From: a phage
Strand: one strand, 5' to 3'
Sequence record: OZ346219.1
Length of the DNA: 64,000 nucleotides
Shown: positions 1-2,817 of the stretch, piece after piece
Layout: each line of letters begins with the position of its first letter
How positions within the stretch are numbered: position 1 is the first letter of the stretch
Made by a program: the position numbers and the translations under genes
Notes under the pieces: model-generated
Told to the model about the DNA's origin: nothing
The model's input: the letters and a program-made list of their open reading frames with translations, nothing else
Database searches by the model: none

Positions 1-2817
1 ATGAGCGTGATTGAAGGGATTAACGCAATGGCGACGGATGAACACCCGCTACATTTAGCTCATCCGTCTACACTAGAAACTAAAATTGATTCAAATGGTA
101 TTGAATGGATTTTATCAAAGCATGATGATAAATGGTATCCTAAAAAGTTTTCTGACTATCTGAAATTAAACAGACCGCAGAAAATAAGGATGCAAAGTAC
201 AGATCCAACAAATTATAAGTTCTTTAAAGATAGTGACAATATTCGCACGCGGTATATGCGATTAAAGAACTTGCGAAGGGCGAATATTAAAACTCAGTAT
301 ACCCCTGAAATGATCGCAGAGTGGAAACGATGCCGTAAAGATATTGTGTATTTTGCCGAAACCTATTGCGCAATTACACACATCGACTACGGTACAATCA
401 AAGTACAATTGCGTGATTATCAGAAAGATATGCTTAAGATCATGCATGAAAACCGCATGAGCGCACATAAACTCAGTCGTCAGCTAGGTAAAGCACTTGA
501 TGTTAATACTCCTATTCCTACCAGCGATGGGTTTAAACGTATGGGGGATATTAAAGAAGGTGATCAGATCTATGCGCCTAATGGTCGTTTAGTTAATGTT
601 GTATATGCAACGGAATACCAGTATGATCGCAAGTGCTACGAAGTTGTTTTAGATACTGGCGCTAAAGTTGTTGCTGATGCCGATCATATCTGGACTGTAT
701 ACGAAAAAGTTGGCAACAAACATGTCAAGCGTGATGTTACAACTCAGGAAATGGTCGATAAGGGTATTACTACCAAAGGTCAATCCAGATTTAAAATCGC
801 TAAGACTAAACCGATTAAGGGAGAAACTAAAGTTCTTCCTGTTGATCCGTATACTTTAGGTTATTGGTTAGGTGATGGTCACACTGATGCAGCACGAATC
901 ACCCACCATAAGGACGATAGCGGCATTCTGACGCATTTAAACGAACAAGGCTATCATACATATACTTTTGCAGATAAACGCAATAGCAACGTTCTCACAA
1001 CGTCTGCGCATGGGTTATGGGAAGGACTTAAAACCGCTGGCGTTGCTGGCAATAAGCATATCCCTATGGAATACCAATTCGCTGATATTGATCAGCGCAC
1101 TGCATTACTGCAAGGTATCATGGATTCTGACGGCTGCATTAATAAAAATGGATACGCTGAAATTACATTAAAACTTAAACCGCTTATTGATGACATTTAT
1201 TCGCTGTTGTGCGGATTGGGCTTTAAGCCGAAAATGAAAGAAAAAGTGGTAAAGGGTACTGTATATTACAGAATTTCATTTAATGCATATGCAGATAAGG
1301 GTGTGTGTCCGGTTCGAATGGAACGGAAGAAAGCAAATCTTATTAATTCTTGCGAAGATACAAGAACAGATTTTCTTTTTATTCGTGAAATTAATCCGGT
1401 TGAATCTCGTCCGGTAAAATGTATTCAGGTTGACAGTGAGGATAAACTATATCTGTGCGGTCGTGAATTTATTCCGACCCATAATACTACCGCCGTAGCA
1501 ATATTCCTCGCCCACTACGTTTGCTTTAATAAAGACAAAGCTGTAGGTATACTGGCACACAAAGGATCTATGTCAGTTGAAGTTCTAGAACGTACAAAAC
1601 AGGCGATAGAATTGTTACCTGATTTTCTACAACCTGGTATCGTTGAATGGAACAAGAAATCTATTGTGTTAGAAAACGGGTCTAGTATCGGCGCTTATGC
1701 ATCGTCACCAGATGCGGTGCGCGGAAACTCCTTTAGTTTCATATACATAGACGAAGCAGCCTTTATTAGTGCGTGGCAGGACGCATGGTTAGCTATTCAA
1801 CCAGTTATCTCATCTGGTCGTGAATCTAAGCTGATCATGACCACGACTCCTAACGGGCTTAATCACTTTTATGATATCTGGCAATCGGCTATTGATGGTA
1901 AAAGCGGTTATGTACCTTATGAGGCGGTTTGGCATTCTGTTAAAGAACGTCTTTACAATAAAGCTGATATATTCGATGATGGTTATGAGTGGTCATCTCA
2001 GGCGATCGCCGGATCTAGTCTTGAGCAATTCTTACAGGAACATAATGCTGAATTTTTCGGTAGTTCCGGTACTCTGATCAGGGCAACCACACTATCAAGA
2101 TTATCCTTTATTGACGTTGTTAATGATAACGGGTTTTATCAGTTTGAGAAACCGAAAGAAGGTAGAAAATATGTTGCTACACTAGATTGCTCAGAGGGTC
2201 GAGGACAAGACTATCACGCAATGCAAGTAATTGATATTACTGAATTTCCTTATAAGCAGGTTGCAGTATATCACAGCAACACTACGTCACATTTAATATT
2301 ACCGGATATCGTCTTTAAATATCTCATGATGTATAACGAATGTCCGGTTTATATTGAGCTAAATAGTACGGGTGTATCTATTGCTAAATCTCTTGCGATG
2401 GATCTTGAATACGATAATATTATTTGTGACTCATTCATAGATCTAGGGATGAAACAATCCAAAAGATCTAAAGCAATGGGATGTTCGGCACTAAAAGACT
2501 TAATAGAAAAAGATAAGCTGATCATTAATCATAAAGGAACTATTCAGGAGTTGCGCACATTCTCCGAGAAGGGGGTAAGCTGGGCGGCAGAAGAAGGTTT
2601 TCACGATGATTTGGTCATGAGTCTGGTAATATTTGGTTGGTTAACAACTCAAGAAAAATTCGCCGAATATGCAGGAAAAGACGAAATGCGGATCGCCTCC
2701 GAAATATTCCGAAAGGAATTAGATGAAATGGGGGATGAATACGCGCCCGTGGTAATATATGACGGTGCAAACGGCATCGAAGAATATAGACCGCGTGAAG
2801 GTCTAACAATGATATAA
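1..2817 (+). CDS. 17: terminase large subunit (gp17-like), interrupted in-frame by an intein
   Basis: 938-aa ORF; flanks match T4 gp17 ([68 protein letters not shown]); 331-aa insert splits Walker A LSRQLGK|TT. Confidence 0.93.
493..1485 (+). mobile_element. intein with double-motif LAGLIDADG homing endonuclease domain (Ala1 ... THN, +1 Thr; class-3-like)
   Basis: insert ALDVNTPIP...REFIPTHN between extein K and T; LAGLIDADG-like LGYWLGDG and [10 protein letters not shown]; block-B-like DHIW; Cys ~20 aa before C-terminal HN. Confidence 0.8.

Follow-up and report, generated by a model that had tools for sequence, protein, structure and literature searches.

The 64,000-nt stretch of phage DNA analysed in this work (sequence record OZ346219.1; hereafter the window) begins with gene 17 (terL), which encodes gp17, the large subunit of the terminase, and this gene is interrupted at positions 493-1485. 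The interruption is very probably a mobile class 3 (WCT) intein carrying a LAGLIDADG homing endonuclease and placed at the Lys/Thr bond of the gp17 Walker A loop, from where it would splice out of the protein and then home in mixed infections.

Comparison of the window with 50,697 phage records by megablast assigned it to Krischvirus (RB49-like, T4-type coliphages), with phage kvi as the top match (98.4%). The gp17 open reading frame (ORF) occupied positions 1-2817 of the plus strand, opening at the ATG with which the window starts and encoding 938 amino acids (aa). When positions 493-1485 were deleted, the remaining 1824 nt aligned without gaps to gene 17 of RB49 (607 aa), with 98 mismatches and 13 amino acid differences; the insert was an in-frame indel of exactly 993 nt relative to RB49, JSE and others. 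Nucleotide junctions were CAG CTA GGT AAA / GCA CTT GAT ... ACC CAT AAT / ACT ACC GCC and protein junctions LSRQLGK / ALDVNT...FIPTHN / TTAVAI, so that the Walker A motif was cut between Lys and Thr; the insertion site in the intein-less gene 17 reads CAGCTAGGGAAA/ACTACCGCTGTAGC. An earlier note, made from the sequence alone, had described a 938-aa terminase ORF with gp17-like flanks on both sides, interrupted between LSRQLGK and TT by a 331-aa in-frame insert that starts with Ala, ends with His-Asn and is followed by Thr, and the alignment and the codons at these positions bore out this description. In megablast comparisons the gene was covered to 100% in 12 phage records, as against 65% in the other Krischvirus records, where coverage fell into two pieces totalling exactly 1824 nt. 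The insert was thus carried by 12 records and missing from around 50 closely related Krischvirus records. Predicted masses were 106.8 kDa for the precursor, 69.5 kDa for the spliced gp17 and 37.3 kDa for the free intein, in agreement with the ~70 and ~37 kDa estimated previously. Pfam matches on the ORF comprised Terminase_6N (aa 496-698) and Terminase_6C (aa 727-898), both in the C-extein, and LAGLIDADG_3, located N-terminal to them. The features of the gene, as predicted from these and the following results, are listed below.

1-492, plus strand: gp17/TerL N-extein, aa 1-164, ending in LSRQLGK (first half of Walker A); 99.2% identical to nt 1-492 of RB49 gene 17
493-1485, plus strand: complete predicted intein, 331 aa, 37.3 kDa; supported by the indel, homology and the fold model
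493-822, plus strand: predicted HINT N-terminal part, approximately aa 1-110 (boundary approximate); blocks A and B with Ala1, Cys48, His65 and Trp67
823-1347, plus strand: predicted LAGLIDADG homing endonuclease domain, approximately aa 111-285; supported by Pfam, the alignment with PI-SceI, Foldseek and the ratio of nonsynonymous to synonymous substitution rates (dN/dS)
1348-1485, plus strand: predicted HINT C-terminal part, approximately aa 286-331; blocks F and G with Cys310 and Thr329-His330-Asn331
1486-2817, plus strand: gp17/TerL C-extein including the stop codon; remainder of the ATPase domain and nuclease domain, colinear with nt 493-1824 of RB49 gene 17
493-495, plus strand: Ala1 (GCA)
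634-636, plus strand: Cys48
685-687 and 691-693, plus strand: His65 and Trp67 (DHIW)
856-879, plus strand: LAGLIDADG motif 1, LGYWLGDG, with Asp128 at 874-876
1054-1056, plus strand: block D Lys188
1105-1134, plus strand: LAGLIDADG motif 2 (LLQGIMDSD213G), with Asp213 at 1129-1131
1420-1422, plus strand: Cys310 (block F:4), presumed initiating nucleophile
1477-1485, plus strand: Thr329-His330-Asn331
1486-1488, plus strand: Thr+1 (ACT), Walker A Thr and presumed acceptor nucleophile
1569-1831, plus strand: hyper-divergent C-extein block of 263 nt, starting 84 nt downstream of the intein

Homology, conservation and predicted fold of the insert

The closest relatives of known structure were class 3 inteins. 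In a phmmer search against all PDB chains the top matches of the insert were the class 3 DnaB mini-inteins 6rix and 6riy (both from Mycobacterium chimaera) and 6bs8 (from M. smegmatis), with E = 2.5e-18 to 3.2e-17. Residues 2-69 of the intein paired without gaps with residues 2-69 of 6rix (MchDnaB1), C48, H65 and W67 having the same numbering in both, and residues 297-331 paired with 6rix 111-145 (PVKCIQVD...IPTHN vs. PVRCVEVD...VPTHN). The middle of the insert matched PI-SceI, and D128, K188 and D213 were aligned opposite D218, K301 and D326 of that protein, which we take to be its catalytic residues.

Homologues were numerous in phages and bacteria. The insert matched 853 records of the phage collection by tblastn, with aa identities of 97-99.7% in 12 Krischvirus records; the next-best matches were Alishewanella phage Slicko01 (41%) and the mycobacteriophages LittleE and Omega (38.8%, E = 5e-67). 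A search of the protein collection retrieved 227 relatives at E <= 1e-10, and in the 113 that were full-length the junctions always followed the pattern GK/(A/G/Q)L...T ... (P/A/T)T(H/S/P)N/(S/T). Host proteins of these relatives were terminases of three Pfam families, Cas4-like nucleases and many bacterial dCTP deaminases. Conservation was calculated from an alignment of 114 homologues. Residue 1 was Ala in 96% of them, the remainder having Gly or Gln; H65, W67, C310, T329 and N331 were each 100% conserved and H330 98%, whereas C322, the other Cys near C310, was conserved in 9% only. The +1 residue was S or T in all 113 homologues. The acidic residues of the LAGLIDADG motifs, D128 and D213, were conserved in more than 90% of the sequences.

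An AlphaFold2 model built on an alignment of 41 sequences had a mean predicted local distance difference test score (pLDDT) of 96.1 and a predicted template modelling score (pTM) of 0.93, with a beta-rich N-terminal HINT part. In Foldseek searches of the PDB the model matched PI-SceI best (E = 4.6e-19, TMq 0.75), and also the TliVMA and PI-PfuI inteins; the class 3 mini-inteins 6bs8 and 6rix were found at target-normalised TM scores of 0.78-0.86 (0.83-0.86 for 6bs8), and I-DmoI matched the endonuclease domain. Two LAGLIDADG helices were present in the model (residues 119-128 and 199-213), each closing on an acidic residue, in keeping with the alpha-beta-beta-alpha-beta-beta-alpha pseudo-dimer fold. 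Pfam LAGLIDADG_3 scored 28.7 bits on the insert, above its cut-off of 22.5 (E = 1.6e-6). Together with the phmmer and tblastn E-values, this score greatly exceeds what chance would give. As modelled, the insert is a bipartite HINT domain enclosing a LAGLIDADG endonuclease domain. The identification of the insert as an intein, put forward in the earlier note, is thus upheld by the predicted HINT fold, the homology to solved inteins and the precise presence/absence polymorphism; that of a LAGLIDADG endonuclease with two motifs is upheld by the Pfam match, by the fold matches to PI-SceI and I-DmoI, by the aligned catalytic residues and by the motifs at 856-879 and 1105-1134.

As regards the insertion sites used by the family, bacterial dCTP deaminases contained a great many members 31-36% identical to the Krischvirus intein (proteins P0010-P0120), without exception at RLEGK/SSLGRL, and further members interrupted Cas4-like nucleases at DWK/(T/S). 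What the family recognises seems to be a short (G/W)K/S/T context rather than P-loop nucleoside triphosphatases (NTPases) as such, which fits the published idea of extein switching through similar nucleotide-binding sites.

Class 3 assignment and the probable need for splicing in the packaging motor

Class 3 inteins are defined by a non-nucleophilic residue 1, Trp at B:12, Cys at F:4, Thr at G:5 and Thr or Ser at +1, the W/C/T residues forming a co-varying triplet, and they occupy helicases and phage terminase large subunits, mostly at the ATPase P-loop (PMC2807308). All these features were present in the Krischvirus insert, namely A1, W67, C310, T329, T+1 and the P-loop site; the bond between K and T of the Walker A loop has been called the 'classic P-loop intein insertion' (Kelley et al. 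2016, PMC5050341). In MchDnaB1, Cys124, His65 and Thr143 form a protease-like triad (PMC7664689), of which C310, H65 and T329 are the putative counterparts by alignment. The class 3 pattern had been proposed before on the basis of a Trp two residues beyond the block B His and a Cys about 20 residues from the C-terminus. Both were located, as H65-I66-W67 in DHIW and as Cys310, the 22nd residue from the end, and the complete signature of Tori et al. 2010 (PMC2807308) accompanied them.

We have adopted the published class 3 pathway (PMC2807308) by homology, because the features of the class and the counterparts of the triad were present. According to this scheme, gp17 would be made as a 107-kDa precursor with a split ATP-binding loop and no packaging ATPase activity. 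The thiol of Cys310 would attack the Lys(-1)-Ala1 bond, giving rise to a block F branched thioester, with His65 and Thr329 completing the catalytic triad and Trp67 activating the junction. The N-extein would then move onto the side-chain oxygen of Thr+1, Asn331 would cyclise with the help of His330 to free the 37-kDa intein, and an O-to-N acyl shift would restore LSRQLGK-TTAVAI in an active terminase of 69.5 kDa. A route other than class 3 is conceivable, for instance that of class 2 (KlbA-like), in which Thr+1 attacks the N-terminal junction and Cys310 is structural; an Ala1 start is indeed shared with class 2 inteins. Nevertheless, the class 2 members in Tori et al. are five archaeal KlbA inteins only, which lack the WCT triplet (PMC2807308), W67, C310 and T329 were invariant over the 114 homologues, and the nearest solved relatives are class 3 inteins that cannot splice without the equivalent Cys (C118) (PMC6195587, PMC2807308). 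Such a route is, on this evidence, very improbable.

Packaging by T4 gp17 is lost even when its ATPase signatures are changed conservatively (PMC9958956). The carriers of the insert (ECD7, kvi, MIZ4, MIZ5, AV108, FL04, FL15, PTE-Eco09, Makalu_002, Makalu_003 and ELT3) are plaque-forming isolates; all twelve carrier records have Escherichia coli as recorded host, and those records that were fetched originate from Denmark, Russia and Nepal. Only one gene 17 was found in this region, both in the window and in RB49, and the exteins as well as the intein were under purifying selection. Since the Walker A GK/T is split, the signatures do not tolerate change, the carriers have a recorded E. coli host and a single gene 17, and selection is purifying, we strongly infer that packaging depends on splicing and that splicing is efficient in vivo. 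That the 331 aa might instead be a permanent, unexcised domain, or the interrupted gp17 a pseudogene whose function is supplied elsewhere, is scarcely credible: the insert parts GK from T of the Walker A loop, its splice-junction residues are the complete set of an intein, sister phages whose flanks are 97-99% identical lack exactly this segment, and the extein of the only gene 17 in the region is under strong purifying selection.

An RNA-level alternative was also considered, in which the insert would be removed as a group I or II intron with an in-frame endonuclease ORF, group I introns with homing endonucleases being found in T4-like phages (PMC2988022). The candidate was rejected, as neither Rfam families (at gathering thresholds) nor tRNAs (ARAGORN) were detected in the whole window. 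In addition, the insert is an unbroken in-frame ORF whose two ends fold as HINT in the model with pLDDT above 95, and protein-level homology to inteins runs from end to end; an intron is therefore extremely improbable.

The class 3 intein could also be subject to conditional splicing. In DnaBi1 of Mycobacterium smegmatis, Cys48 is required for splicing and, under oxidative stress, forms an inhibitory disulfide with the block F Cys118 (PMC6195587). The phage intein has both cysteines: Cys48 keeps its number, and Cys310 corresponds to Cys118. Cys48, which sits outside the canonical splicing blocks, was conserved in at least 90% of the sequences in both the 114- and the 41-homologue alignments; in the DnaBi1 paper it is termed 'non-conserved' (PMC6195587). 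Because both disulfide cysteines are kept and Cys48 is so widely conserved, a redox- or metal-conditional maturation of gp17 is conceivable, in which oxidative or metal stress in the infected cell might keep gp17, reversibly, in its inactive precursor form and so postpone DNA packaging, although we regard this as a rather doubtful proposal. If true, conditional splicing would represent a post-translational control of the phage packaging motor.

Probable mobility of the intein in the Krischvirus population

Distribution of the intein was patchy, around 12 of roughly 60 Krischvirus records carrying it, and clearly incongruent with the phylogeny of the host gene. Three intein lineages, ~95% identical in DNA, were distinguished: the ECD7 type, to which the window belongs, and those of ELT3 and Makalu. 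The ECD7-type intein was 99.9-100% identical among ECD7, kvi, MIZ4 and FL15, whereas over the 375 nt downstream of it ECD7 matched kvi completely (100% identity) and MIZ4 or FL15 at only 81.9%. ECD7 and MIZ4 presented a single difference over nt 358-1505 (intein and short flanks) vs. ~70 over 1569-1831. Makalu_003, which has the intein, and Makalu_001, which does not, come from the same sewage study; their gp17 differences were almost all located in 474-489 and 1515-1917, and these tracts directly flank the insertion site, as would be expected if homing had been accompanied by co-conversion.

Among the three intein lineages, dN/dS was 0.04-0.12 for the whole intein and 0.02-0.10 for the endonuclease domain, and the HINT C-terminal part (1348-1485) had no nonsynonymous differences at all. 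The low values in the endonuclease domain argue against a decaying endonuclease. In mixed infections the freed intein, acting as a site-specific LAGLIDADG endonuclease, would cleave gp17 alleles that lack the intein, at the point where it inserts, and repair by recombination would transfer to them the intein and stretches of flanking extein of varying length. Judged from the sequence comparisons, homing is likely to be active.

The block at 1569-1831 deserves separate consideration. It was ~27% different from RB49-type alleles (dS ~1, dN/dS 0.03-0.07) and nearly identical to those of ECD7 and kvi, whereas the rest of gp17 was at least 97% identical. At least three haplotypes of the block were recognised (RB49 type, ECD7/window type and Makalu_003 type), JSE being a mosaic of two. 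The block spans the Walker B region. The divergent downstream tract (~81% identity to RB49) was evaluated as the result of simple co-conversion and this explanation was rejected, as the tract starts 84 nt away from the intein, is missing in MIZ4, FL15 and ELT3, which have the intein, and is partly present in JSE, which does not. The block may be a co-conversion remnant, an independent mosaic segment or import from a T4-like donor, or the outcome of diversifying exchange.

Some results weigh against the interpretation of 493-1485 as a mobile class 3 intein. Neither Pfam nor NCBIfam contained a splicing-domain model matching the insert when the ORF and the insert were scanned, and NCBIfam matches were limited to weak ones with intein-containing ribonucleotide reductase, V-ATPase and radical-SAM proteins. 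Only LAGLIDADG_3 scored above its cut-off, while none of the HINT, intein_N or intein_C models matched. Given that the PDB sequence search and the fold search were unambiguous, we take this failure as a limit of sensitivity and not as counter-evidence. The dN/dS values rest on few substitutions, with 1-5 nonsynonymous ones per pair in the endonuclease domain. Moreover, 83 nt of RB49-type sequence separate the 1569-1831 block from the intein, and the block also appears, as a mosaic, in the intein-less JSE. Being non-contiguous and present in JSE, the block is not cleanly attributable to homing, since general recombination gives the same pattern; general recombination does contribute to gp17 mosaicism.

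These last observations would suit an intein that splices but is no longer mobile, its endonuclease being inactive or without targets, and whose patchiness results from vertical descent, recombination and occasional precise loss among co-infecting Krischvirus. The occurrence of the block in JSE shows that gp17 is mosaic regardless of the intein, and the three intein lineages, which differ by a dS of 0.15-0.20, similar to that of the exteins, point to a long residence; a scan of IMG/VR with the intein also retrieved ECD7 as the sole close relative, all other loci being at most 37% identical. However, the catalytic residues of the endonuclease were intact and 90-100% conserved, its dN/dS stayed far below the value of ~1 expected under decay, an intein 99.9-100% identical was found among exteins whose sequences immediately downstream of it differ by 19%, and the divergence tracts between Makalu_003 and Makalu_001 adjoin both sides of the insertion site. 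Loss of mobility is accordingly the unlikelier explanation, and a homing intein the preferred one.

Genomic surroundings, annotation and known systems

Beyond gene 17 the window was colinear with RB49 from gene 18 up to gene 35, which the match enters at the window end, and over the first 49 kb the intein was the sole large window-specific insertion relative to RB49. Further differences from RB49 were noticed. A 198-aa ORF with HNH_3 and AP2 domains (56335-56931, minus strand), located between gene 32 (55300-56274) and gene 59 (56918-57595), resembles a free-standing homing endonuclease and fills ~650 nt missing from RB49, ECD7 and JSE. It was present in 12 of 59 Krischvirus records, in some of them annotated as an HNH homing endonuclease, and its occurrence did not track that of the intein: kvi and MIZ4 have both, ECD7 and ELT3 the intein only, and pEJ01 and Cognac the HNH gene only. 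A 394-aa ORF (53996-55180, minus strand) displayed four tandem CapR-homology/treble-clef zinc-finger repeats and, at its C-terminus, a MUG113-like domain whose weak Pfam match (E = 0.0018) lay under the cut-off; its N-terminal part (54363-55178, ~815 nt) had no match to the corresponding RB49 ORF239c. This ORF could represent a further mobile gene of the nuclease type whose DNA-binding module has been swapped. Two segments of ~240 nt each (approximately 33205-33442 and 36491-36727) each matched the RB49 counterpart of the other at 86% identity, pointing to a dispersed repeat among small early genes, and two RB49 segments, including ORF192c and ORF211c, were missing from the window (at 33450 and 38260-38269).

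Class 3 inteins have been known since 2009 to favour the P-loops of phage terminases and helicases, and those at the K/T bond of the terminase P-loop have already been described in actinobacteriophages (PMC5050341). In the literature searched, no paper was found on an intein of this kind in Krischvirus, ECD7 or kvi, those read that name RB49 alongside inteins dealing with different subjects, and a paper of 2024 states that inteins were unreported in coliphages (PMC11162368). No public record of the carriers annotates the intein. In three of them, PP400778.1 (FL15), PP358550.1 (FL04) and PQ306574.1 (PTE-Eco09), the terminase is labelled 'replicative DNA helicase DnaB', a mislabel that likely stems from automated annotation keyed on similarity to DnaB inteins. 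Elements of this sort are probably under-counted, since the splicing domain escapes the standard models of Pfam and NCBIfam. A tractable, easily grown T4-type coliphage with natural alleles with and without the intein (flanks 97-99% identical) provides a convenient system for class 3 splicing, homing, co-conversion and conditional control; with the E. coli phage pairs Makalu_003/Makalu_001 and MIZ4/MIZ6 (with and without the intein, respectively) conditional splicing and class 3 homing are directly testable. The ECD7, Makalu and MIZ phages are candidate therapeutic phages, and an endonuclease converting co-infecting relatives bears on the design of cocktails.

The terminase inteins of the actinobacteriophages LittleE, Omega and Cjw1 are class 3 inteins of full length too, equipped with a canonical LAGLIDADG endonuclease and inserted in the terminase ATPase domain (PMC5050341; bioRxiv 10.1101/2025.01.02.630785). 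They were 33-39% identical to the Krischvirus intein over all 331 aa and share with it the AL..(D/N)T start and the PTHN end followed by Thr, and the TerL1-a site is situated between the invariant P-loop Lys and Thr (PMC5050341). The host protein differs, as the Krischvirus intein resides in a T4-type gp17 (Terminase_6N/6C) of a Gram-negative T4-like myovirus whereas those of the actinophages are mostly in Terminase_1 proteins of siphoviruses; the LittleE junction is HEFK/TAV and not the canonical GK/T.

Closer in host protein are the P-loop inteins of gp17-type terminases in Slicko01, the Synechococcus phages B23 and B3, and the E. coli jumbo phages JNE01, UE-S1 and ph0011, which belong to the same family, are 34-41% identical and are inserted at RQxGK/T(T/A). 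Terminase inteins containing LAGLIDADG were noted in 2017 in the jumbo Klebsiella phages Rak2 and K64-1 (PMC5259590). The other gp17-type carriers differ from Krischvirus in genus or family (Kyanoviridae, Asteriusvirus, unclassified), and none exceeded 41% identity; only P0001, a fragment of a metagenomic T4-like terL with the same family at RQxGK/T, was closer, its intein being 69% identical and its visible exteins similarly divergent (68% across the whole aligned stretch).

Among inteins studied experimentally, the mycobacterial DnaB mini-inteins Msm DnaBi1 (6bs8) and MchDnaB1 (6rix, 6riy), for which splicing through the block F Cys has been demonstrated (PMC6195587, PMC7664689), share with the Krischvirus intein the numbering of Cys48, His65 and Trp67, the PV(K/R)C(I/V)xVD block F, the PTHN block G and the P-loop site. 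They differ in their size of 139-146 aa, in having no endonuclease and in residing in a bacterial replicative helicase, and the redox (Cys48-Cys118) and Zn control known for Msm DnaBi1 is only conceivable for the phage intein. The DnaB intein of mycobacteriophage Bethlehem (MP-Be), prototype of class 3 (PMC2807308), is also phage-borne in a P-loop NTPase and has in common a non-nucleophilic residue 1, the WCT triplet, Thr+1 and an endonuclease domain; in contrast, it starts with Pro1 instead of Ala1 and its host gene encodes a helicase, and it did not appear among the top matches, which indicates a distant relationship. PI-SceI, the yeast VMA1 intein, gave the best overall fold match, with the same HINT and LAGLIDADG architecture and aligned endonuclease catalytic residues, but it is a class 1 intein (Cys1) from a eukaryotic host, of 454 aa, with an extra DNA-recognition region and 16-17% identity. 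In every respect tested, the Krischvirus intein is mechanistically like the known class 3 inteins.

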